A stretch of 11,607 nucleotides of DNA. Origin: Oligoflexales bacterium (GTDB lineage: Bacteria; Bdellovibrionota_B; Oligoflexia; Oligoflexales; Bog-1112). How positions within the stretch are numbered: position 1 is the first letter of the stretch; every line of letters begins with the position of its first letter. The stretch spans positions 1-11,607 of the forward strand of contig JBGCDR010000115.1 of assembly GCA_045105515.1 (NCBI GenBank), in the 5' to 3' direction. Positions 164-11,480 of the stretch are shown here, piece after piece. The translations under genes and the position numbers were made by a program. The notes under the pieces were generated by a model. That model saw only the letters and a program-made list of their open reading frames with translations, was not told where the DNA came from and made no database searches.

Positions 164-751
164 TTATAATGCGATTATTTGAGATTCAGATTCTTTAATA
201 AAACACTCGTTGTGTTCCGAAAAGATCACAACACCCTTATTTTTTACGTGTTGCTTGATTCGGAAAGCTAAAAACTTCACTGCCTTTTGATCGAGACCAT
301 TTGTTGGCTCATCTAGAATCCACAAGGGGCACTCATCGATAAGAGTTGCTACTAAAAAAAGTTTCTTTATCTGCCCAAGAGACATCGCACGACATTTAAG
401 ATCCAAAATCTTATTAAGCTCTAATTCTTCGTTTGCTGCTTCCGAATACTTTAACAGATCGTTTTTCCGTATGCTTGCAATGTATTCCAAAAAAGTTCTG
501 CCACGAATGAATGGGTATGTTGTTGGTTTGTCTGGCAAAAAACTACGGTTCTTATTTAAATCATCAAATGAATAGGTGACCGTTCCTTCGAATTTTTGAT
601 CTAGACCACTTAAAATTTTTAGAAGAGTACTTTTACCTGCCCCATTTTTTCCATTCAATGCATAGGAACCAGACTCAAACGCATGGTTAAAGTTGTGGAT
701 AATCCTTTTGGATCCAAATGATTTACTGATACCTTGTGCTGAAACAATCAA
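164..751 (-). CDS. ABC transporter ATP-binding subunit (exporter type, ~195 aa)
   Basis: Walker A GKNGAGKST, signature variant MSLGQ, Walker B WILDEP, H-loop SEH. The TTG at 751 (LIVSAQGISKSFG) lies just after the permease stop at 756 and behind GGGGAC, so it is preferred over the ORF-track start at 814. Confidence 0.93.
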   Translation of the reverse strand: MIVSAQGISKSFGSKRIIHNFNHAFESGSYALNGKNGAGKSTLLKILSGLDQKFEGTVTYSFDDLNKNRSFLPDKPTTYPFIRGRTFLEYIASIRKNDLLKYSEAANEELELNKILDLKCRAMSLGQIKKLFLVATLIDECPLWILDEPTNGLDQKAVKFLAFRIKQHVKNKGVVIFSEHNECFIKESESQIIAL

Positions 752-755
752 TTTA

Positions 756-1754
756 TTATCGTCCCCATAAAAATAGTAGCAAGGCTGGCAATAATGCTCC
801 CAATAACCAAGCATGCGTAAATTTTAATATTCTAAGTGATAGACAAAGCATAAATACGATAAGAGCCACCAGCACAGCATAAATGTCCATCGCGACCATA
901 AAGTATCCAAGCATAAAGACTGGAATAGCTAGAATCATAAATGCGACTAAATCACTGTAAAAAACCTGGAAACGGGATGTAGGTAACATAGAAAAATAGT
1001 GCTTATATTGGTCATCTATATCGTGCATCCTCGTAACTAGCCGCGAAAAGTATGCCAACCCCCAGTACATCCCCACCGCATGGATCGAACCGAGTGAACT
1101 CTTGGTATATGGACTATTATAAAATATCAGATACCCAAGTGTCGCTAATAAGATATAATCCAAGCATATTTTGCCTTTTAATACAGCCAAAACTATCTGT
1201 AATCGCAAGATTATTGATGAGCTTGGGGTCGGTAAAAATTGAAATGACAACCCCCTACTCGCCTCCAATACCGGCAAGCAATGCTTATTTCCTAAATATA
1301 GGATGAGGATGGCTGTCAACGAAGCTGCAAAATCAATCAAGGTATACATGCAAAAGGCTGATAGGCTCTTAAGGAGTGGTGCTTTAGAACAAGATATAAA
1401 AAAACCTATCCAAGCAATCATGGGAATACTAACGGTAAAAAAGATCAGGCAGCGCAAGAGCGGGGCATAGAACCTGGGCAAAGGCAGAGTGTTAAGGAAC
1501 CCAATGATATTTTGATTTTTCGTAAAAATATCCGAGTGCAAAAGAGCAAATAATAAAAACACTAAATATACCTTAAACGATATATTTAAACTGCCTTCAG
1601 CGAGACAATTGCCTATATAACCAATATCTTGATTGGATAAAGTCGTGAGGATAAAAAGGCAAAACAAGTAGAAGATATTTCTTACTCTACTTGAAACTGC
1701 CTGATTTAATACAAGTAATTGTGTCCAAGACAAACTTCTTAAGAAGATTTTCAT
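756..1754 (-). CDS. Polytopic membrane protein, probable ABC exporter permease
   Basis: 332 aa with many hydrophobic segments. It sits directly upstream of the ATPase. Two 'LP..R' motifs (FLNTLPLPRF; YFSMLPTSRF) resemble those of ABC-2-like permease halves. Confidence 0.75.
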   Translation of the reverse strand: MKIFLRSLSWTQLLVLNQAVSSRVRNIFYLFCLFILTTLSNQDIGYIGNCLAEGSLNISFKVYLVFLLFALLHSDIFTKNQNIIGFLNTLPLPRFYAPLLRCLIFFTVSIPMIAWIGFFISCSKAPLLKSLSAFCMYTLIDFAASLTAILILYLGNKHCLPVLEASRGLSFQFLPTPSSSIILRLQIVLAVLKGKICLDYILLATLGYLIFYNSPYTKSSLGSIHAVGMYWGLAYFSRLVTRMHDIDDQYKHYFSMLPTSRFQVFYSDLVAFMILAIPVFMLGYFMVAMDIYAVLVALIVFMLCLSLRILKFTHAWLLGALLPALLLFLWGR

Positions 1755-2035: not shown

Positions 2036-2113
2036 ATGTCTTTTGAAATCAACGTAATTGAGACAAGCGGACAAAATGCACAAACTGGATGTAACAGTTG
2101 TGGATGCCCCTAG
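2036..2113 (+). CDS. Putative RiPP precursor peptide, 25 aa, MSFEINVIETSGQNAQTGCNSCGCP
   Basis: ATG at 2036 with GGAG SD at 2027-2030. The C-terminal core is C-x-x-C-x-C-P. A hairpin terminator follows immediately, then the DUF692 operon. It is the 3' part of the ORF-track 1895..2113 call. Confidence 0.85.
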   Translation: MSFEINVIETSGQNAQTGCNSCGCP

Positions 2114-2115
2114 TT

Positions 2116-2146
2116 AAAATTAGCGGGGTGTCCCGCTAATTTTTCT
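2116..2146 (+). terminator. Intrinsic terminator/stabilising hairpin after the precursor
   Basis: Perfect 12-bp stem AAAATTAGCGGG (2116-2127), loop GTGT, CCCGCTAATTTT (2132-2143), with a short T tract. It starts 3 nt after the precursor stop. Confidence 0.85.
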
Positions 2147-2187
2147 CTAGATAACTTATTTCAACCTTAATACTGAGAATTGATCCA

Positions 2188-2724
2188 GTGATTATTGAGC
2201 AACTAAAGCAACAAAACCTTCATGAATACTGTGAGCTACAGCTGGCTATAGACTCAACAAGCTCGTTTATGGATTATGATGCAGATGAACGCATAGATAC
2301 ACTTCAGGACTTACTTAACTCGCGATTTAAAAATGGCAATTCGATCTTTCTGGTAGCGAAACAATCCAATCGCTTGGTGGGTTACGGTGAGATTCACGGC
2401 ATGAAAACAAAGAAGAAGAAACATGTTTGCTGGGCACTGGGTGGGTTCATCCCTTGCTTTCAAAGCCAAGGATTTGGTTCGAAAATGCTTTCAAGTATTT
2501 TAGATCATGCTGCAAAAAAATGGAGACGGCTTGATGTGACTGTGATGGATGGGAACATCAAATCGGTTAAGTTACTTAAGTCTTTCGGATTCCAAGAAGA
2601 AGGTAAAAGACATAAAGCCATCCATCATGATGGCAAGTACTACGATGAGATATACCTAGGGATAGATCTAAAAAAATGGAGACAAGGGCGTGTCAGCAAA
2701 AGCACGACAAAATCTATACGCTAA
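2188..2724 (+). CDS. GNAT family N-acetyltransferase
   Basis: Acetyl-CoA motif A QSQGFGSKML and the C-terminal motif N..SVKLLKSFGFQEEG...DGKYYDE. GTG start. Confidence 0.9.
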   Translation: MIIEQLKQQNLHEYCELQLAIDSTSSFMDYDADERIDTLQDLLNSRFKNGNSIFLVAKQSNRLVGYGEIHGMKTKKKKHVCWALGGFIPCFQSQGFGSKMLSSILDHAAKKWRRLDVTVMDGNIKSVKLLKSFGFQEEGKRHKAIHHDGKYYDEIYLGIDLKKWRQGRVSKSTTKSIR

Positions 2725-3502
2725 GCTTATCAATAGCAAAGAAGTTCGGATTCTATATAAAAATAGCTCACCTGAAGCCATCATGGCACAATTTGGGATT
2801 GGCCACACAGACTATGAGGCTATTTTTAGCTTTTTAAATCAAAAACAGCGAAGGTTTGATCGATCTGCACAACTAAACCTACGCAACAGGTGGTTTGGGG
2901 TTTTAGAGTGCCTTAGTAGCCTTGAAAAGTTCATGACTAAGCAAGAAATCGCATTAAATTGGCGAAAATTCATCAGAAATCTACCACTTGGGATCCCAAA
3001 AAACCCACACGCTGAGGCATTGGCTTTTATCGATTTTATGTTGCAAAATCATTCACCTGGCATACTCGCAAACGTCTTAAGGTATGAGAAAAATAAAAAT
3101 CAGGTTCTATTCTCTTTTTTAAATTCTGATTTTAAAAAAGCACAGTCATCATCTTATGAGCAATATGAGGACCTTAGCTACCCCTTCGTATTCCAAGGCT
3201 ACCTAATGCAAGATTTCAAATATGATTTCAGCAGCATTAACGATGGAAAGCTTGAAAGAAAAAATTCAACCGTTCTATTTGCCAAGAACCTTTCAGGTCC
3301 AGGGATCATCACTTTGAATGTAAATCGTGACTTGCAAGGACTTCTAATCAAACTAAATGGATTAAATAGCGTAGAAAAACTACTGCCTCTATACCCTGAG
3401 GTTGCTGCACATCAATTGGTTGGTACCTTGGAGACATTGAGTAAAATTGGAATACTAACCTTCCTAAAAGGGGGCAAAGATGAATGCAAGAAAAATTTCT
3501 AA
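2690..3502 (+). CDS. Probable MNIO partner protein with C-terminal RRE/winged-helix (DUF2063/MbnC/TglI-like role)
   Basis: Overlaps the DUF692 gene. It has a helical N-terminus, an 'EALAFIDF...LRYE' segment like DUF2063-type partners, and a C-terminal beta-strand + helix pattern (LLIKLNGLNSVEKL...LETLSKIGIL) typical of PqqD/RRE folds. The call rests on context plus pattern. Confidence 0.7.
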   Translation: MSAKARQNLYAKLINSKEVRILYKNSSPEAIMAQFGIGHTDYEAIFSFLNQKQRRFDRSAQLNLRNRWFGVLECLSSLEKFMTKQEIALNWRKFIRNLPLGIPKNPHAEALAFIDFMLQNHSPGILANVLRYEKNKNQVLFSFLNSDFKKAQSSSYEQYEDLSYPFVFQGYLMQDFKYDFSSINDGKLERKNSTVLFAKNLSGPGIITLNVNRDLQGLLIKLNGLNSVEKLLPLYPEVAAHQLVGTLETLSKIGILTFLKGGKDECKKNF

Positions 3503-4301
3503 GTTGGGGATAGGGCTTAGTTATATCCCTGATTTGCGAGCTGAGCTTTTGGCTCACCTCGACGAGATCGACTTTTTTGAGTTTTATTCCGAAAGCTTTT
3601 TCTATCCGAATTTTGATCCAATTCAAAAAAAGATAATTGCAGAAAAACCAATGGTTATGCATGGCTTAGATATGTCGCTTGGGGAGATTGTACCTGCAAA
3701 TCAGAAACATCAGAGCCAACTAGCCAAAGCTGTTAAGAATTATCAACCCAAATGGTTCAGTGATCATCTATGCATGACCAAATCTTCTGGAGAAGAAGTT
3801 GGGCATCTGATGCCCATTGAGTTCAATGACGAGGTTTTAGAAAACATTTGCAAAAAGATTACTGAAGTTTCAGAACTTTGTGATCTCCCTTTTCTCATCG
3901 AAAACATCACATATTATTACCAACTCCCTTTCGCTACCTATGGTGAATGCGAGTTTATAAGCAAGGTTGTTGAAAACTCTGATTGCGGAATCCTCTTGGA
4001 TGTCAATAATTTATACATCAATTCTGTAAATCATAGATACGACCCCTATAGCTTTATCGATCACTTACCCCATGAGCGGATAATTGAGGTTCACATAGCG
4101 GGTGGATCAAGAAAATTGGGCATGATGGTTGACACGCATGCAAACAAGATTCAAGCGGAAGTTTGGGCTTTACTAGAGTATGTTATGCGCCGCACTTCTG
4201 TAAAAGGGGTTGTTTTAGAACGAGATGCTAATATTCCTCCAATCAAGGATATCTTAGCTGAGCTTGCATACGCACGAGAGATTGCCAAGAGAACTTGTTA
4301 G
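3480..4301 (+). CDS. DUF692 family multinuclear non-heme iron-dependent oxidative enzyme (MNIO)
   Basis: Characteristic motifs: GIGL, HGLDMSLG, WFSDHLC, HLMP, FLIENI, LLDVNNLYINSVNH, EVHIAG, VDTH, VVLERD. 273 aa. SD GGGGG upstream. Confidence 0.95.
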   Translation: MNARKISKLGIGLSYIPDLRAELLAHLDEIDFFEFYSESFFYPNFDPIQKKIIAEKPMVMHGLDMSLGEIVPANQKHQSQLAKAVKNYQPKWFSDHLCMTKSSGEEVGHLMPIEFNDEVLENICKKITEVSELCDLPFLIENITYYYQLPFATYGECEFISKVVENSDCGILLDVNNLYINSVNHRYDPYSFIDHLPHERIIEVHIAGGSRKLGMMVDTHANKIQAEVWALLEYVMRRTSVKGVVLERDANIPPIKDILAELAYAREIAKRTC

Positions 4302-4309
4302 GAAAAAAG

Positions 4310-4876
4310 ATGGATCACACGTTAAAAGTTTCGCGATGCCTCGTCGTCGCTCATCCTGATGATGAAGTTATCTGGTTTGCTCCAGAATATTTTAACCTAA
4401 TTGTCATTGTATTTTTAGGGAGGGAAGACAAGCCTTGGATGGATCCTTGCCGGAAAAAGAGTCTGTTTGAGCATGACCTAGGCGATAAGATCCTCTGTTT
4501 GAATCTTATTGAATCTGGATTTTGGAAGGACGCCTCGAGAAGTAAAGAACATAGGTCAGCTTATGCCAAGACTCAAAGAGAACTAAAAGCAATTTTTAAT
4601 CGCTCCAGCTTTAACGAAATTTACACCCATGGCCCTGAAGGGGAATATGGGCATAGTGATCATACACTTGTCCATCAGGTTGTCAAAAAAGTGCTAAGAC
4701 CAGATCAAATGATGTATTACCCTGTGTCTCACACATCCAGATTATTTGACCTAGTACATAAAAGTGACACGGTACTGCGAAAAAGAATCATGCAAGTATA
4801 TAAGATGAATAAATGTTGGACTTGGAACGAAGATCATATTTTTAATGAAGAGATAAAGTATCGTGCAATTAAATAG
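4310..4876 (+). CDS. PIG-L/LmbE family metal-dependent de-N-acetylase
   Basis: AHPDDE motif and THGPEGEYGHSDH motif. ATG at 4310 behind AGGA is preferred to TTG 4295. Confidence 0.9.
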   Translation: MDHTLKVSRCLVVAHPDDEVIWFAPEYFNLIVIVFLGREDKPWMDPCRKKSLFEHDLGDKILCLNLIESGFWKDASRSKEHRSAYAKTQRELKAIFNRSSFNEIYTHGPEGEYGHSDHTLVHQVVKKVLRPDQMMYYPVSHTSRLFDLVHKSDTVLRKRIMQVYKMNKCWTWNEDHIFNEEIKYRAIK

Positions 4877-5579
4877 GCATAATAAAAAAATCAGGACCCT
4901 ACTAGGACTTGCCTCTATTCCATCTAGAAAGGAGATGATGCGGCAAACCTTGAAATCCATATCATCTCAAGTCGACCACATCGTGGTTTACCTCAACAGA
5001 TATGATCATGTTCCCGATTTTTTACGCTCTGATAAGATAAGTATCTTTGGCATTGATGGACCCGATTTGGGTGATGTAGGTAAGTTTTATGCCATTGAGC
5101 ACTGTAATGCTGAATTTTTTCTGACGATTGATGATGATATCATCTACCCACACAACTACGTTGCTGCTTTAATCGAAAGTTATCAAAATTGGGATGCAGA
5201 CACTATTATTTGTGTCCATGGAAATAAGATCCCCAAAAAAATAACTGCTTCCTATTATCAGGAGAAAGTAGGGCTGCACTTTTCATCCATTCTTGACAAG
5301 GACACCCTAGTAGATGTGCCAGGTACGGGGACTATGATCATCCAACCTAAGATGCATAGAATCTCGTTAGATTTATTTTCAAGACCAAATATGTCGGATA
5401 TCTGGTTGTACAAATACGCTCGTCTGAACAAGAAGCGAGTTGTGGCTATTAAACGGCAAAGTTTATGGCTAAAAGAGCAAGAGCATCAAGTGTGGAGTGA
5501 TTCGATCTATTCACAGCATAAATCTAATGATGGGTTTCAAATCAACATCATTAACAGATACCTAGATTACCTTGGATGA
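4863..5579 (+). CDS. GT-A fold (GT2-like) glycosyltransferase
   Basis: N-terminal LASIPSR...TLKSISSQVD, GDVGKF, the DxD motif in TIDDDIIYP, GTGT, and MSDIW. Confidence 0.85.
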   Translation: MQLNRHNKKIRTLLGLASIPSRKEMMRQTLKSISSQVDHIVVYLNRYDHVPDFLRSDKISIFGIDGPDLGDVGKFYAIEHCNAEFFLTIDDDIIYPHNYVAALIESYQNWDADTIICVHGNKIPKKITASYYQEKVGLHFSSILDKDTLVDVPGTGTMIIQPKMHRISLDLFSRPNMSDIWLYKYARLNKKRVVAIKRQSLWLKEQEHQVWSDSIYSQHKSNDGFQINIINRYLDYLG

Positions 5580-5583
5580 CAAT

Positions 5584-6345
5584 ATGGATCAAATAACGAA
5601 TAATTTTTCTGAAACTGGATACCTTATACTAAAGAATTTCCTCTCTGAAGGTGAATTTACTTCACTTAAACGAGAGGTAGAAAATTATGAGGCTAAGGCA
5701 CAAGAAAAGAATATGTGGATGAACTATTATGAAGCAGTGGAAGGTAGTAAACTACTAAACCGGATAGAAAACCTATCACCCTACAGTCGAGTTATTCATA
5801 ATTTAACGAGGGATAAAAGACTTCACGCTTTGATGACAAGCCTGACAGGCTCCCATTATTCCCTTCTTAAGGATAAAATAAACTTTAAAAGACCTGGGGG
5901 GAGAGGTTTTAAGCCTCATCAAGATGGTGCGGCCTTCTCTAAATTCACTCGCAAAGAAATCTTAACGGTTCTTATTCCGATTGATCATTTCACGAATAGT
6001 AATGGGTGTTTTGAGATCTATAATAGTAATAGGATTCCGAGGTTAATGGAACATCAAAATGGATCCTTAGAGTTTATGAAACTAGAGGAAAATAGGTGGG
6101 ATAAGGTGTTTCTAAAGCAAAGAGACATTATGATTTTTAGCGGTCGCTTAATACACTGTTCCAAGAATAATTGTGATTCAATGCCTCGCAGGGTCTGCTT
6201 CTTCACATACAATGATCTAAAAGATGGCAATCTCTTCGATGAATACCTGAACTATAAGCGCACTCATTTTCCACCTGAGCTAGAACGACAAGGTCAATCA
6301 AACCTCAATCACTGGACCTCCCATTTATCTTGCAAGATCCTTTAG
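5584..6345 (+). CDS. PhyH-family Fe(II)/2-oxoglutarate dioxygenase (PhnY-like sequence signature)
   Basis: GYLILKNFLS, KDKINFKRPGGRGFKPHQD (HxD), a distal His in LIHCS, and the 2OG-binding Arg in PRR. The start could be TTG 5572 or ATG 5584. Confidence 0.9.
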   Translation: MDQITNNFSETGYLILKNFLSEGEFTSLKREVENYEAKAQEKNMWMNYYEAVEGSKLLNRIENLSPYSRVIHNLTRDKRLHALMTSLTGSHYSLLKDKINFKRPGGRGFKPHQDGAAFSKFTRKEILTVLIPIDHFTNSNGCFEIYNSNRIPRLMEHQNGSLEFMKLEENRWDKVFLKQRDIMIFSGRLIHCSKNNCDSMPRRVCFFTYNDLKDGNLFDEYLNYKRTHFPPELERQGQSNLNHWTSHLSCKIL

Positions 6346-6355
6346 GAGAAAAGCT

Positions 6356-7174
6356 ATGTATCTATTACTTGGTCATAAAAGCGTAGACTGCATTCTTTCA
6401 AAAGTATTGCAAAGGTTTAAAGGGGTAAATCGATGGGAAAGGTACCTTCATCTACTAGCAACTCATTCTTATTTACAAAATCTAGAAGGTACCATTTCTA
6501 AAAAACCAGTTTTTTCAGACATCAAGGGTCTAAAAACTGTCGCCCCGAAGTATTATGACACAGTATACAAGGATTTTTCTAAAAATAGCAAGGTGAACAC
6601 CGAGCGACTTTGCAATGGGTTTTTCGACGATGTGATTTTGGAGCTATCAAAACGAAGTGTCGATATTCATCAAACATTTAGCTTTCTTGTTCGTTATATC
6701 ATCATCCACTCCATGCAGCAGTACACCAAGGGAACTACTGAAGATTCACTGGGTTTAGTGATAATAAATGGTCAGGATCATCTTGAGAAAGAGGATTACA
6801 TAGAATTGATGGTGCATCAAATGAATCATATGATCATGTTTTTAGATGATAAGCTCAACCCCCAAGTTTCTAATGAAAACAAATGTCTCCCTATAACCTT
6901 GCCGATCAATACAGCAGCAGGCACAAGAAGCATGTCATTTTATGTCCTCCTTCACAGTTTTATGGTAGGTGTCGAGGTTTTGCTGTTTAGAAAAAAATTT
7001 GCCACAGAATCTTTCCACGGGGCTTTTCATGGGTCAACCTCTCAACTTACCTCAAGATGCATGCATGCCTTTCACCTTCTTGCTGATAAACGGGATTATT
7101 TACTACCAAGAGGTGTATGGATTTTAGAAGCATATAGAGAACAGTTAAGCTATTTTCAGGAGCACTTTTTGTGA
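6356..7174 (+). CDS. aKG-HExxH-like protein (putative peptide beta-hydroxylase), HQxxH variant
   Basis: Pattern GTT...LGLVIIN...DYIELMVHQMNHMIMF...LLHS matches the RiPP-associated HExxH domain layout (ExxxHExxH plus a distal His). SD AGGAG at 6344-6348. Confidence 0.65.
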   Translation: MYLLLGHKSVDCILSKVLQRFKGVNRWERYLHLLATHSYLQNLEGTISKKPVFSDIKGLKTVAPKYYDTVYKDFSKNSKVNTERLCNGFFDDVILELSKRSVDIHQTFSFLVRYIIIHSMQQYTKGTTEDSLGLVIINGQDHLEKEDYIELMVHQMNHMIMFLDDKLNPQVSNENKCLPITLPINTAAGTRSMSFYVLLHSFMVGVEVLLFRKKFATESFHGAFHGSTSQLTSRCMHAFHLLADKRDYLLPRGVWILEAYREQLSYFQEHFL

Positions 7175-7971
7175 TAGATAGAAATTTTTTTATGACAATC
7201 TACCGACAGATAAACCAACATAGTTATGAAGCCTTACTTGAAAACAGGCTAAGTGAGTTAGCGGTCTTTCAAGCTGATGCCAAGGATGAGGAGCTTCATC
7301 AAGTTTTAAAGTATCATGGCTTTTTACTCTTGAAGTTTTCTGTAAAAGTATCCTTAGATACAGTGCGAGCTAGGCTTACAAACTTATTAGGTGAGCCGGT
7401 TAGGGATAGTGGCGTAGAGGATTCCCTTCACACTACCATAGCTTCAGTCAATCAAGGACGGTATTTTTCCAATTCCTGTTACACTCAGCCTTTGCATATG
7501 GATGACGCCCATTGTCATCAGATACCAAGGCTGATTACCCTGCATTGTGTAAGGCCTGCTAATAAGGGGGGGGTGTCAACCTTATTAAAATTTGCAGACA
7601 TCGAAGAGCAAATTTTACCATCTTATGCTGATGTTTTCGAAAAGCTTTTTGACAAAAACTGCCTGAGAATAAGAGGGATGAAAGGTGAGCTAAACCGACC
7701 ACTTCTGGAACACCTCGAAGAGGATTACTTAGGAATGGCTTTTCCGGCAATTCTCGAAGGTCTTAGTGCGGATGCCAGAATTGAGCAACTATATCGTGAG
7801 GTTTACAGCTACATCCATAATCCAAAAAATCAGATTAGATTTTCAATGAAGCCAAATGAGGTCCTTATTATAGATAACTTTCGTACCTTTCATGGCCGGA
7901 CAAGTTTTCCAGCAAGCTCTTCTCGCTTGCTCTATCGAACTTGTTTCCCTGCCAACACCTTCCGGAAATAG
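7171..7971 (+). CDS. TauD/TfdA (clavaminate synthase-like) Fe(II)/2OG dioxygenase
   Basis: PLHMDD (HxD), LHCVRPANKGGVSTL, IIDNFRTFHGRTSF and RLLYR. GTGA start/stop overlap with the upstream gene. Confidence 0.92.
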   Translation: MIDRNFFMTIYRQINQHSYEALLENRLSELAVFQADAKDEELHQVLKYHGFLLLKFSVKVSLDTVRARLTNLLGEPVRDSGVEDSLHTTIASVNQGRYFSNSCYTQPLHMDDAHCHQIPRLITLHCVRPANKGGVSTLLKFADIEEQILPSYADVFEKLFDKNCLRIRGMKGELNRPLLEHLEEDYLGMAFPAILEGLSADARIEQLYREVYSYIHNPKNQIRFSMKPNEVLIIDNFRTFHGRTSFPASSSRLLYRTCFPANTFRK

Positions 7972-7985
7972 GATAAATAAACGGT

Positions 7986-9148
7986 ATGGTGGGTTTATTG
8001 ATTTCATCTTTTTGTCTAGCCTGTGCAGATTTTGCGATTAATTTTTTTCTACAGTTATGGATCAATGATTTCTTTGGCAACCCTGGCTTGGTTTCCTTAT
8101 TTTTTTCAGGATCCTTGCTTGTAAGGATCATACTCATCCAATTTTATCCGATGATTTTAAGGTCCGTCTCAGTCAGACAATCCTTATTGCTTGTTCCGTG
8201 CATTCATATAATGCTCATGGCATTATCATATTTTTTTAGGTTAATGCCGTATAAGACCACTTTTTTTGCGTTGTTCTTAGTTGCAAATACTTGCTTTCAA
8301 TCTGCGAGTAGGGTGACGTTGCAAGCAGCAGTTGACAAGATCATACCTTCAAGCAAAATTGGTCAATTTTTCAAGAGATATCAACTTGCATCTTCTTTAG
8401 CAGCATTTACCGGACCACTTTTTCTTTTGACCTTTGATGTGAAAGTCGATAATTATTATAATTTTGTGGCATGTATGATTTTTTTATACGGAATCGCTTT
8501 TTTGCTTTTGAAGGGTATCAAGATTTCCCCAAAAACTGATTATAAGGCTCCTAAAAACAAACCTACCACAAGCACTCCCAGGTTCTCCTCAGTGTTGCTG
8601 CGCAAAAAATATTTTATGCAATCATTTTGCTTAATATAGCACTTATCCCGATCCATTTGTTTATTCCTATATGTAGGTACCACAACCCAAATATGGGTGC
8701 TAACTACCTTGTCTTTTTACAAGTGACCTTTGCTTTTGGTGGTATAATTCCTGGGCTTTATATGAAAACATTAGCTGAAAGGCGTAGATCTTTTAGCACA
8801 CAAGTTGGTTCTCGATATTTGTGTTTAGCTTTCTTCTCTTTACTACTTACTGACCTTGGTCTATCGCCACTCAGCTACTTAAGTTTGCTCGGTATAGGCG
8901 TCTGCATAGGTTTTATTAATGTACTTCTACAGACATACTTAGTGGAGATCCTTCCTTCTCATATTCAGCATCAGGTGTTTTGTAACATTGAAAACGTTAT
9001 ACTTATCACACGGATGATTTCATTTTTGATTGTAGGCTTTTTCTTAACATCGCTAGCACCAGCCTTGCATTACAGCCTAAGTGCGGCACTCTTGATTTCT
9101 ACAGCCGCATGGTTGTTTTATTATAGGAGAACCTTAGATTATGTATGA
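7986..9148 (+). pseudogene. MFS transporter split by a single-base frameshift (or a sequencing error)
   Basis: ORFs 7986..8639 and 8627..9148 look like the N- and C-halves of a 12-TM MFS exporter. Adding one A to the A6 run at 8604-8609 gives LLRKKIFYAIILLNIALIP and a 387-aa continuous ORF. Confidence 0.75.
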
Positions 9149-9680
9149 CATTCCAGATTTCAAGGTCCCCAATGAGTCCATGAGAGGGACTGCTCGAGTT
9201 CGCTCCTCTCCAACCAATTTAGCTACGTGGGTAACAGATAACCTGAAAAGCGATTCAAAATCCTTTAGTGTCCTAGATTTTGGGGCCGGACACGGTTTCG
9301 ATGCAGCGTATTTAAATAGTAAAGGGTTTCATTGCGAGGGATGGGACCCCGTATTTTCAAGTACTCTAGCCCCAAGGAAAGAGCATTATGATTTAGTGTT
9401 ACTAGCTTATGTTTTAAATGTGATACCTTCTCTTAACTTACGCAAAAAAGTTTTACTTCAGGCATGGCATTACAGTCTTACCCACCTTCTGATTGCGGTC
9501 AGGATGAATACCGTCATGAGACCGACCCAAAAATACCAAGATGGAGTCATCACCTCGATTGGGGCTTTTCAAAAAGTTTACACCCCTATAGAAATCAAGG
9601 AATGGTGTGATCAAATCCTTGATAGTAAAGGGACTTTTGTGGGTAAGAATACTTTAATATATAGAAAAAACAGCTGTTAA
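9141..9680 (+). CDS. Class I SAM-dependent methyltransferase
   Basis: VLDFGAGHG motif I, GWDP, YDLVLLAYVLNVI, and DGVITSIGAFQKVY. It resembles one domain of the 'DNA phosphorothioation-associated putative methyltransferase' family. Confidence 0.85.
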   Translation: MYDIPDFKVPNESMRGTARVRSSPTNLATWVTDNLKSDSKSFSVLDFGAGHGFDAAYLNSKGFHCEGWDPVFSSTLAPRKEHYDLVLLAYVLNVIPSLNLRKKVLLQAWHYSLTHLLIAVRMNTVMRPTQKYQDGVITSIGAFQKVYTPIEIKEWCDQILDSKGTFVGKNTLIYRKNSC

Positions 9681-9945
9681 AGAGCACTTTGATTCATTGG
9701 CACAAGCACCAAATACAAAGTCCAAACTTGCGCTGACCCAAATAAAATAAAAAATATTCTTATTGGAAGATGATGACAGAAGCTTGCAGAAGTTGCTCGA
9801 ACGTAATGCCCTTTTTCCGCAAGATCTCATTGCATCCAAAAATATCCTGTCCTCTGACAAAAATCTATCGGCATCGAAAAACTAAGCTGCCCATTTGTAG
9901 CAGTGATGTAAGCCGTTACAAAATTCATCTGAAACAATCGCCGAT

Positions 9946-10119
9946 CTACATCATTCCACCCATGCCACCTTATTATGGAGCACTAAGTCACCTTTGGTAT
10001 TGCTTAGTATCAGTTTGTATTTACTGGTACTTTTTACTTGAAACATACTCATCGATTTCCGCTTTATTGGTACCTTTTGGTACTCTTGGGTACAAAAATC
10101 GTGTCGTTTTCGTGTCGGT
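9946..10119. repeat. Direct repeat copy 1; att-like site containing the groEL 3' tip
   Basis: About 87% identical (hand alignment, ~23 differences) to 10557-10731. Positions 9969-9946 on the minus strand read GGT GGC ATG GGT GGA ATG ATG TAG (GGMGGMM*). Confidence 0.9.
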
Positions 10120-10212
10120 ATTTACCATGGCATGCATCACTGAGATAATGACACCTTTTTTCCTATCCAAAAAACTTTTCTTAAGAAATTAAAATCAGAC
10201 CAAGGAAAATTC

Positions 10213-10542
10213 ATGAAACTTATCATTTCAATTTTGTGCTTATCACTAATTGCATGCGGTTCACCAAGCACCGAAACAACTGATAAAACCTCTAATCAAA
10301 ACCAAGTCACACCGAAAACTCAAACAGAAGATGAAAAATCGAAACCCAACTCTTCATCAATTTCCATAGATCATGATGGCTTTTATATACATAAGGAGCA
10401 CAAACTAGCCAGCCCAATCTATGAATTTTTTGATGGTGATTATAGATCAATAGAAATTGTTGGCTCAAATCAAGATTGCATATTAGCTGAAACAATCGAG
10501 GGAGAGTTTCACTTACTAAACTCTTCGACTGTAATCCTATGA
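10213..10542 (+). CDS. Small lipoprotein of unknown function (possibly C-terminally truncated)
   Basis: Signal peptide MKLIISILCLSLIA-C with a lipobox, followed by a low-complexity S/T/Q/K tether. SD AAGGA upstream. The stop is 15 nt from repeat copy 2. Confidence 0.75.
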   Translation: MKLIISILCLSLIACGSPSTETTDKTSNQNQVTPKTQTEDEKSKPNSSSISIDHDGFYIHKEHKLASPIYEFFDGDYRSIEIVGSNQDCILAETIEGEFHLLNSSTVIL

Positions 10543-10556
10543 CCATCAAGATCTAA

Positions 10557-10731
10557 TTACATCATACCACCCATGCCGCCCTTATTTGTGGTCACTAAAC
10601 CACCATTGGTATTGCTTGGTATCAGCTTGTATTTACTGGTACTTTTCACTTTAATCACACTCATCAATTTCCGCTTTATTGGTATCTTTAGGTACTCCTG
10701 GGTACAGAAATCGTGTCGTTTTCGTGTCGGT
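10557..10731. repeat. Direct repeat copy 2; att-like site containing the groEL 3' tip
   Basis: Positions 10580-10557 on the minus strand read GGC GGC ATG GGT GGT ATG ATG TAA (GGMGGMM*). It has internal GGTA(C/T) repeats and a tandem CGTGTCG-TTTT-CGTGTCG. Confidence 0.9.
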
Positions 10732-10946
10732 TTATTGGTTCCAAAGAGAGCTTTCAATCCTAAGAATACTTCATTTCGGGATGCATGGGCAGATGTAGCA
10801 AAGTCATCAGAGGTTCCCCGTTTAACTCGGGGTAAACTCTGTCGAAAGATCTCACATTTTTTCCTGTCACCACCACGCCGCCAGGCGGTAAAGTGGTCCC
10901 CTTCAAGTCCCTCTTTATCACCTCGACTGTAGTGGAGAGGTCTCCT

Positions 10947-11480
10947 TCAAATACGCTTAGCCATCTTCTCAAAAAACTCAATCAACCTCTTAGCCCTCTC
11001 ACTATTACTAGGCCCTGGCTCCAAATGAGCACTGATGCTCTCCAGAAAAGTATCTTCATCAAGAAACTCTACTAACTTTTTACTCAGATAATCAGCTACA
11101 CTTGCTGGAGCATTTTGTATCGATTCAAAGGATAGCATTCCATCAAGCAAAGTCACAACATCTTCAATATCATGACTGAGCCTAAAATCACCTGTTCCTC
11201 TACCTAAGTAGGCTTCAAACTTAGAAGCAACAAAATACGGTGGACTAAAGATCTTAATAACAGTCCCTGAAGGCAACTTCACATCCATCGCCTCCCTAAT
11301 CCCCTCTTTGTACCACTTGTTAGAAAAACCAATGATATTCTCATCAGTAGGCATTACATCAACGGTGACTCCGTTTATTGTCCACCTGCAAATTGGATCT
11401 CCAGCTTCTTGGGAGTTAACGAAGCCTTTTTCTCTTAATTTTGCTTCTAACTTTCCATATTCTGAATAATTACTGGCAAG
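10947..11480 (-). pseudogene. 5'-truncated nucleotidyltransferase-fold protein (AbiEii/type IV TA toxin-like)
   Basis: The frame extends upstream of ATG 11354 as SEYGKLEAKLREKGF..GDPICRWTINGVTVDVMPTDENIIGFSNKWY...KFEAYLGRG..D...SHDIED. It hits an in-frame stop at 11499-11501 with no start codon. The expected N-terminal GG and T-x-D-x-D catalytic motifs are absent. Confidence 0.65.

Follow-up and report, generated by a model that had tools for sequence, protein, structure and literature searches.

The stretch of DNA analysed here, in the following called the window, comprises 11,607 nucleotides (nt) from an Oligoflexales bacterium and is the whole 11.6-kb contig (JBGCDR010000115.1) of a 6.3-Mb assembly (GCA_045105515.1) that is 91% complete. 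It carries a small cluster for a peptide that is made on the ribosome and modified after translation (RiPP), built around an oxidative enzyme dependent on multinuclear non-heme iron (MNIO), and directly after the MNIO gene come the genes for a PIG-L/LmbE-family deacetylase and a GT-A glycosyltransferase. We propose that these two enzymes act in succession on the peptide of the cluster: alpha-linked N-acetylglucosamine (GlcNAc) would be transferred to the modified peptide and would then be N-deacetylated to glucosamine. To this reading, which is drawn from the sequences, we give a probability of roughly 0.55. An earlier note on the same DNA had already suggested that a GlcNAc-type transferase and a PIG-L deacetylase decorate an MNIO RiPP with an amino sugar, and this core of the note is supported, every comparative test run being in keeping with it: the transferase belongs to a family in which the characterised enzymes transfer GlcNAc, and the two genes are always adjacent and in Photorhabdus even fused.

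The glycosyltransferase and the deacetylase

4310–4876, plus strand: compact PIG-L/LmbE-family N-acetylglucosaminyl deacetylase of 188 amino acids (aa), assigned by Pfam (PF02585, E 4e-8), motifs and fold
4863–5579, plus strand: stand-alone KfiA/PmHS2-type GT-A glycosyltransferase (CAZy GT45; PDB 8vh7, E 1.3e-29)

The two genes share an overlap of 14 nt and lie between the MNIO gene and a PhyH gene, the deacetylase gene starting 8 nt past the MNIO stop (4301) and the transferase stop overlapping the PhyH gene by 8 nt. The open reading frame (ORF) coordinates and the overlap given in the earlier note for two overlapping genes directly after the MNIO are thus confirmed. For the transferase the GTG at 4863 is preferred as start to the ATG at 4935, from which the gene caller had predicted a shorter protein of 214 aa (P0001), because the later start would remove the conserved first strand "I.ASLASIPxR". 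The deacetylase begins with the ATG at 4310, which has an AGGA 7 nt upstream; an alternative start is the TTG at 4295.

Residues 6–230 of the transferase align with the C-terminal domain of the heparosan synthase PmHS2 (residues 295–526 of 8vh7), and there is a second match to KfiA (5z8b, E 1.2e-14). With a profile of 21 homologs the E values fall to 5.5e-56 for PmHS2 and 3.6e-43 for KfiA, and nothing else in the PDB matches. According to excerpts of a preprint (10.64898/2026.10.20.760405), the PmHS2 domain is a retaining GlcNAc-transferase of CAZy family GT45 with a DXD/Mn site and a near-universal Asp nucleophile. The corresponding DDD (residues 90–92) and D179 are kept in 81 of 81 aligned domains; D179 aligns with the Asp of the PmHS2 sequence "GMADIY" and may correspond to the nucleophile Asp569 of the preprint. 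No GT2 domain or gene (GlcA-transferase; GlcA, glucuronic acid) of the heparosan type accompanies the transferase. The assignment to the KfiA-like GT45 enzymes is solid, and the transferase is predicted to be UDP-GlcNAc-dependent and retaining. Both the family and the deacetylase partner point to UDP-GlcNAc as donor and to alpha transfer with retention, and the donor predicted by the family fits what a PIG-L partner needs. Of the glycosyltransferase described in the earlier note, the GT-A fold was therefore retained, and the likeness to the GT2 enzyme SunS was given up: PF00535 stays below its cut-off (19.5 versus 23.3), as does PF12804, and searches of the PDB return only heparosan synthase and KfiA.

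The transferase of the window is only about 30–40% identical to any relative. Five positions (C117, N121, K135, G137 and P153), all near the active-site strands, are fixed in 16 of 16 members of the clade to which it belongs and are rare (0–9%) in the other 65 domains; they may mark a remodelled acceptor site.

In the deacetylase, the match to PF02585 (34.2 bits, cut-off 28.2) spans only residues 88–133. All 12 aligned orthologs share the motifs VAHPDDE and TH..GEYGH.DH without change, and these align with AHPDDE and GGYGHPDH of MshB. From work on MshB, the N-terminal AHPDD(E) and the central H-x-D-H are known as metal-binding and catalytic motifs. The AlphaFold (AF2) model of the deacetylase has a pLDDT of 92.3 and in Foldseek finds MshB as top match (E 1e-6, TMq 0.60–0.67), followed by diacetylchitobiose deacetylases, BC1534, the pseudoaglycone deacetylases Orf2* (teicoplanin) and Dbv21 (A40926), and BshB. 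It thus belongs, on solid grounds, to the PIG-L/LmbE family, in a compact form of about 185 aa with intact catalytic motifs, and its predicted activity is the metal-dependent hydrolysis of the N-acetyl group of a GlcNAc glycoside. Its nearest relatives in the databases are also short, and the typical members of 230–320 aa follow at lower scores. A metagenome scan with the deacetylase profile yielded, among the matches listed, only distant PIG-L proteins (22–34% identity), none of 80 beside a GT45 or MNIO gene, and is uninformative on close orthologs. A complex of deacetylase and transferase was predicted with a score of 0.01, which counts neither for nor against binding.

Conservation of the pair in MNIO clusters

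A genome-wide search for relatives of the transferase gave 399; the best 80 loci were kept, and all proteins of the window were compared with these. The 15 closest loci (L004–L017 and L028) are from Fluoribacter gormanii, Legionella shakespearei, L. drozanskii, metagenome-assembled genomes (MAGs) of Legionellales/Coxiellaceae, three Photorhabdus species and a MAG of the Bacteriovoracaceae. In these 15 loci, which come from two phyla, the pair is kept at 29–43% identity, far more than would be expected by chance. The PIG-L gene lies directly upstream of the transferase gene in all 15 (in L009 it is a fragment at the contig end), and an MNIO gene is visible in 13, the remaining two contigs being too short. 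In Photorhabdus akhurstii, P. temperata and P. khanii, and likewise in protein P0019 of P. stackebrandtii, the pair forms a single ORF of 412 aa.

Two gene orders are found. In the window, in the Coxiellaceae type and in Photorhabdus the pair separates the MNIO gene from the PhyH gene, and in the Legionella type it follows the ABC (ATP-binding cassette) transporter genes and closes the cluster on its 3' side, which indicates that the pair moved as a unit. The other 65 of the best 80 loci have neither a PIG-L nor an MNIO gene nearby. There, the transferase-like domain is part of an ORF of at least 347 aa in 58 of the 61 cases in which the ORF could be delimited; among 30 sampled relatives, a GT2 domain that is distinct by its coordinates is present in 20, and others of the 30 contain FkbM methyltransferase, GT25, GT47 or TPR domains. 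By their sequences most of these relatives appear to be PmHS2-like multidomain glycan synthases. One of them (L003; G022:C203, 4236–6416, minus strand), encoded in a genome of the taxonomic order to which the organism of the window belongs, is at least 651 aa long and combines a coiled-coil-like N-terminus with a GT2 region and a KfiA-like domain; it looks like a heparosan synthase, and its gene adjoins an ABC exporter and another GT2 gene.

In a maximum-likelihood tree the transferase of the window and all cluster-linked domains group together in a single clade (16 rows, SH-aLRT 97) that branches from within the synthase domains, which suggests a single origin of the cluster-linked transferases within a family otherwise consisting of multidomain synthases. 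The earlier note had named a mapping of the pair mainly to cell-surface polysaccharide loci as the observation that would speak against it. Among the loci examined the pair occurs only in the MNIO cluster, and polysaccharide synthases are found only among the distant, unpaired relatives of the transferase.

The gene cluster and its precursor peptide

The pair is part of a row of plus-strand genes from 2037 to 9680, in which the spacing from the GNAT gene through the methyltransferase gene is −35 to +14 nt. The further features of the window are:

164–1754, minus strand: ABC ATPase (164–814; PF00005, 2e-18) and membrane protein (756–1754); homologs of the ATPase adjoin the cluster in related loci
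2037–2113, plus strand: likely precursor peptide, 25 aa, MSFEINVIETSGQNAQTGCNSCGCP; GGAG ribosome-binding site; homologous short ORFs in related loci
2116–2143, plus strand: hairpin directly after the precursor stop (from the fold of 2108–2152)
2188–2724, plus strand: GNAT acetyltransferase (PF13420, E 5e-14)
2690–3502, plus strand: MNIO partner protein with TglI/DUF2063-like fold (AF2 model and Foldseek; no Pfam match)
3480–4301, plus strand: MNIO (DUF692), BufB/HvfB-like (PF05114, E 9e-80)
5572–6345, plus strand: PhyH-family Fe/2-oxoglutarate oxygenase (PF05721, E 9.5e-18), kept in related loci
6356–7174, plus strand: protein weakly similar to aKG-HExxH peptide beta-hydroxylases (TIGR04267, E 1.2e-3; 18.9 bits versus a cut-off of 40)
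7171–7971, plus strand: TauD-family Fe/2-oxoglutarate oxygenase (PF02668, E 3.5e-25), kept in related loci
7986–9148, plus strand: transporter of the major facilitator superfamily (MFS) in two overlapping ORFs (7986–8639 and 8627–9148), matching the N- and the C-terminal half of MFS_1
9141–9680, plus strand: S-adenosylmethionine-dependent methyltransferase (PF13489, 2e-7; TIGR04096, 7.6e-30), overlapping the MFS gene by 8 nt

An MNIO, its partner protein and a Cys-bearing precursor are encoded together, as is characteristic of MNIO-type RiPP clusters. In all 12 related loci whose sequence extends far enough upstream there is a precursor-like ORF of 23–25 aa, which has an acidic leader and invariably ends in C-N-S-x-x-C-P, and a homologous precursor is also encoded in two further genomes, the Legionellaceae genome G062 and G010, which is from the same family as the organism of the window. 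It is therefore likely that the 25-aa peptide is the substrate of the whole cluster. Both precursors of the Oligoflexales family (window, 2037–2113; L169 of G010, contig C317, 6969–7055) have a third core Cys (C-N-S-C-G-C-P), at the position of which the Legionella and Photorhabdus precursors have Val or Thr. The locus L008 encodes an additional Asp/Asn beta-hydroxylase (14428–15177; PF05118, E 2.6e-49) beside its MFS gene, which hints at hydroxylation of the invariant Asn.

The hairpin behind the precursor gene has an inner stem of 12 base pairs (−20.7 kcal/mol, z −6.1), and its U-run lies partly inside the stem; a simple scan for consensus terminators did not flag it. Possibly it is an attenuator or a stabiliser of the mRNA that could set the ratio of precursor to enzyme transcripts.

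Among named families the MNIO is nearest to those of the NCBIfam models for BufB (NF050167; 6e-67, 225.6 versus a cut-off of 310) and HvfB (1e-61, 208.5 versus 360), and since both equivalog cut-offs are missed, it is best regarded as a member of a related but separate subfamily. In the PDB it matches 3bww (4e-44), TglH (9e-20) and MbnB (3e-18). The AF2 model of the partner protein (pLDDT 82.4) resembles chain A of TglHI (8hi7/8hci, E 6e-6) and NGO1945 (3dee, E 2e-4).

As to the remaining genes, the divergent ABC ATPase and membrane protein are likely to have a role in export or immunity. The HExxH-like protein (6356–7174) has no Pfam match and is conserved across the related loci. The two halves of the MFS transporter lie in different frames and overlap by 13 nt just after a run of six A at 8604; judged from the ORFs, this split may reflect a genuine frameshift or one introduced by the assembly. 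The MFS protein of L008 gave no tblastn match in the window. For the methyltransferase, which resembles a dnd-associated putative methyltransferase (TIGR04096), tblastn found no match in any related locus, and it may therefore provide an extra tailoring step unique to the organism of the window. Further downstream (9770–11354) there are ORFs without a Pfam or NCBIfam match, among them 10213–10542, with a lipoprotein-like start, and 10947–11354 on the minus strand.

The pair as an optional module

Among 101 sampled Legionellaceae genomes, two have the transferase and two have the partner protein, with only one genome common to both. The other partner-bearing genome, G062, encodes the precursor, GNAT, partner, MNIO, PhyH, HExxH and TauD proteins and three transporter genes, ABC genes among them, followed directly by asnS, and its precursor core is the same as in the other loci of the Legionella type. 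Neither in this locus nor in the rest of the genome, the completeness of which is not stated, was a transferase or a deacetylase found with the queries used. The pair is thus a tailoring module that the MNIO RiPP cluster, itself conserved, can have or lack. G010 was also considered as an example of a cluster without the pair, and precursor, GNAT, partner and MNIO genes are indeed present, but its contig breaks off within the MNIO gene, so that it cannot be counted; the HExxH gene was not found elsewhere in this assembly either.

The pair is also independent of the GNAT. GNAT homologs are encoded in L004, L006, L008, L010 and L012–L014. In the five pair-bearing loci L005, L011 and L015–L017, among them those from Photorhabdus, none was detected by tblastn with the GNAT of the window, and there is no room for one between the precursor and the partner genes, the partner gene starting within 100 nt of the precursor. 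The same five loci carry an ORF of 363–366 aa at the junction of the PhyH and HExxH genes, where the GNAT-bearing loci have no ORF. In both of the loci scanned (L005, 13243–14340; L015, 11534–12625) Pfam identifies the product as a class I/II aminotransferase. By analogy, GNAT and aminotransferase may be alternative means of capping the new N-terminus; a precedent for capping by an aminotransferase, which these variants of the cluster recall, is MbnN of the methanobactin pathway.

Proposed pathway and competing explanations

The following sequence of events is proposed. The partner protein and the MNIO would oxidise Cys residues of the precursor, by family most likely to a 5-thiooxazole or an oxazolone-thioamide; for MNIO products, both the 5-thiooxazole and the earlier assignment as oxazolone-thioamide are mentioned in the abstract of PMC12668002. 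Up to three oxygenases of the Fe/2-oxoglutarate type would add hydroxyl groups. The GT45 enzyme would then transfer GlcNAc from UDP-GlcNAc with retention, and thus in alpha linkage, to a hydroxyl group of the peptide. The simplest acceptor would be the invariant Ser; other candidates are beta-hydroxy-Asn, hydroxy-Pro or a thiol. Removal of the N-acetyl group by the PIG-L enzyme would leave a glucosamine with a free amine, and the ABC and MFS transporters would export the product. Transfer first and deacetylation by a PIG-L enzyme thereafter is the order followed in the mycothiol, bacillithiol, glycosylphosphatidylinositol (GPI) and teicoplanin pathways.

Several points weigh against this pathway. 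That the acceptor is a peptide is something we infer and do not observe, and the transferase has no recognisable leader-binding domain. The searches of Pfam and NCBIfam gave for the transferase only sub-threshold matches to GT2, MobA and HpsN. With 188 aa compared to 230–300 aa for most of its relatives, the deacetylase is unusually short, and its substrate could therefore differ. In the Legionella type, where the pair is at the edge of the cluster, linkage alone is the weaker argument, and G062 indicates that the pair is not needed to make the core product.

It is unlikely, yet conceivable, that the same two-step logic applies to another sugar: another UDP-N-acetylhexosamine, such as UDP-GalNAc, or another acetamido sugar would be used, and the deacetylase would again free an amine on the peptide. 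The five clade-fixed positions do mean that specificity has been remodelled somewhere, and the identity to any relative is only about 30–40%. A new acceptor would explain these positions equally well, however, the donor-side motifs are fully kept, and the transfer of GlcNAc is the only GT45 activity described in the excerpts of the preprint cited above.

We also consider it unlikely that the pair acts off the peptide, on another glucosamine-containing molecule that travels with the cluster, such as a glycan of the envelope, a co-substrate of low molecular weight or a mark by which the producer protects itself. In favour of this explanation it should be mentioned that the characterised GT45 enzymes found, in those excerpts (10.64898/2026.10.20.760405) and among the PDB matches, act on glycan acceptors and not on peptides, which at the same time counts against the peptide as acceptor; that in the Legionella type the pair follows the ABC genes; and that the cluster also exists without the pair. 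On the other hand, the position between the MNIO and PhyH genes in the other types, with overlapping stops and starts, places the pair in the midst of the peptide-modifying genes, the clade was not seen outside the cluster in the best 80 loci kept from 399 relatives, and no other glycan-synthesis genes were noted among the scanned ORFs of the cluster.

There is little to recommend the idea that glycosylation is only transient, the sugar masking the peptide in the producer as pro-drug device, self-protection or export tag and being removed after export. With other antibiotics, producers are known to protect themselves by glycosylation, and one natural cluster, that of G062, does without the pair. 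But no glycosidase is evident among the scanned ORFs of the cluster, and a dedicated deacetylase, in Photorhabdus even fused to the transferase, suits a finished amino sugar better than a disposable tag. Least probable, and disfavoured here, is the alternative offered in the earlier note that the GNAT puts on a protective acetyl group which PIG-L takes off again, independently of the transferase: the GNAT gene does share the operon in the window, but the two dissociate in both directions (pair without detected GNAT in five loci, GNAT without pair in G062), and the PIG-L enzyme is fused to the transferase and not to the GNAT.

Comparison with known systems

The closest relatives of known function, KfiA of Escherichia coli K5 and PmHS2 of Pasteurella multocida, share with the transferase of the window homology over its whole length, the DDD and the Asp at the position of D179, and its size is that of the single-domain KfiA. 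It differs from them in that it is not encoded in a capsule locus and has instead of a GT2 GlcA-transferase a PIG-L partner in an MNIO cluster, in the five clade-specific positions and in the presumed acceptor, which is a peptide and not GlcA.

The logic of attaching GlcNAc to a peptide and then deacetylating it with an enzyme of PIG-L fold is shared with teicoplanin and A40926 (Orf2* and Dbv21; PDB 2xad, 3dff, 3dfi). These peptides are non-ribosomal, however, whereas that of the window is ribosomal, and the GNAT of its cluster is not tied to the pair. In teicoplanin and A40926 biosynthesis the transferase belongs to another family, and the freed amine is subsequently acylated. With MshA/MshB and BshA/BshB, to which the earlier note had compared the pair, GlcNAc transfer and PIG-L deacetylation are likewise common ground, and MshB is the best match of the deacetylase in both sequence and fold. 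The analogy holds for the two steps and fails for the transferase family: MshA and BshA are GT4 enzymes, and the transferase of the window is a GT45 enzyme of GT-A fold. Moreover, its acceptor would not be inositol phosphate or malate, and no Cys ligase is seen in the cluster. Among transferases acting on ribosomal peptides, SunS and ThuS are GT2 enzymes of GT-A fold that glycosylate glycocins, and for these we know of no deacetylation step.

With the clusters for bufferins, oxazolins and fontiphorins (BufB, HvfB) and for methanobactin (MbnBC), that of the window has in common a short precursor, the Cys residues of which are the target of an MNIO and a partner. It differs in the precursor, which is very short, lacks a signal peptide and ends with C-N-S-x-x-C-P, and in the presence of the sugar pair and of three additional oxygenases. 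A further candidate considered, the Group V "methanobactin-like" operon that Kenney 2013 describes in Photorhabdus luminescens, was rejected, as it has a single Cys and a MATE pump.

Significance

Glycosylation of RiPPs and the installation of amino sugars by a transferase and a PIG-L enzyme are each known. For the products of MNIOs, the statement in the earlier note that none is known to be glycosylated has so far stood: full-text searches of the literature other than subscription-only journals, with the listed hits judged mostly by title and the start of the abstract, found no such product, and where papers containing both MNIO and glycosylation terms were examined, the matching passages were incidental. 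The main text of a paper on the MNIO landscape (PMC12452194) does not mention glycosylation, PIG-L, deacetylases, TauD or Photorhabdus, and no such cluster is mentioned in the relevant passages of this paper, of the fontiphorin preprint and of the methanobactin mining paper of 2013. In the literature searched, the cluster family thus appears to be undescribed.

With about 8 kb and a precursor of 25 aa the cluster is small, and nature provides variants in which the pair is separate, fused or missing. The prediction of a mass increase of 203 Da that changes to 161 Da after deacetylation is therefore directly testable by heterologous expression. The cluster also occurs in Photorhabdus, and this genus has been widely mined for natural products.

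If the proposed pathway is true, glycosylation, and specifically a free amino sugar, would join the chemistry of MNIO-made peptides, and GT45, a family known from capsule synthesis, would gain a peptide acceptor. The free amine of the sugar may have a part in the binding of metals, or else in uptake and recognition. A more far-reaching picture, which in all its parts together we put forward only tentatively and would not bet on at even odds, is that of a glycosylated MNIO peptide, the first of its kind: an exported, metal-binding compound of very small size, derived from Cys (as thiooxazole or oxazolone-thioamide) and carrying an alpha-linked glucosamine. For it a capsule-type GT45 enzyme, together with a miniature PIG-L enzyme, would have been recruited once to act on a peptide in place of a glycan, the module having then spread horizontally with the cluster among intracellular or predatory and insect-associated bacteria of the Legionellales, Photorhabdus/Xenorhabdus, Oligoflexales and Bacteriovoracaceae.

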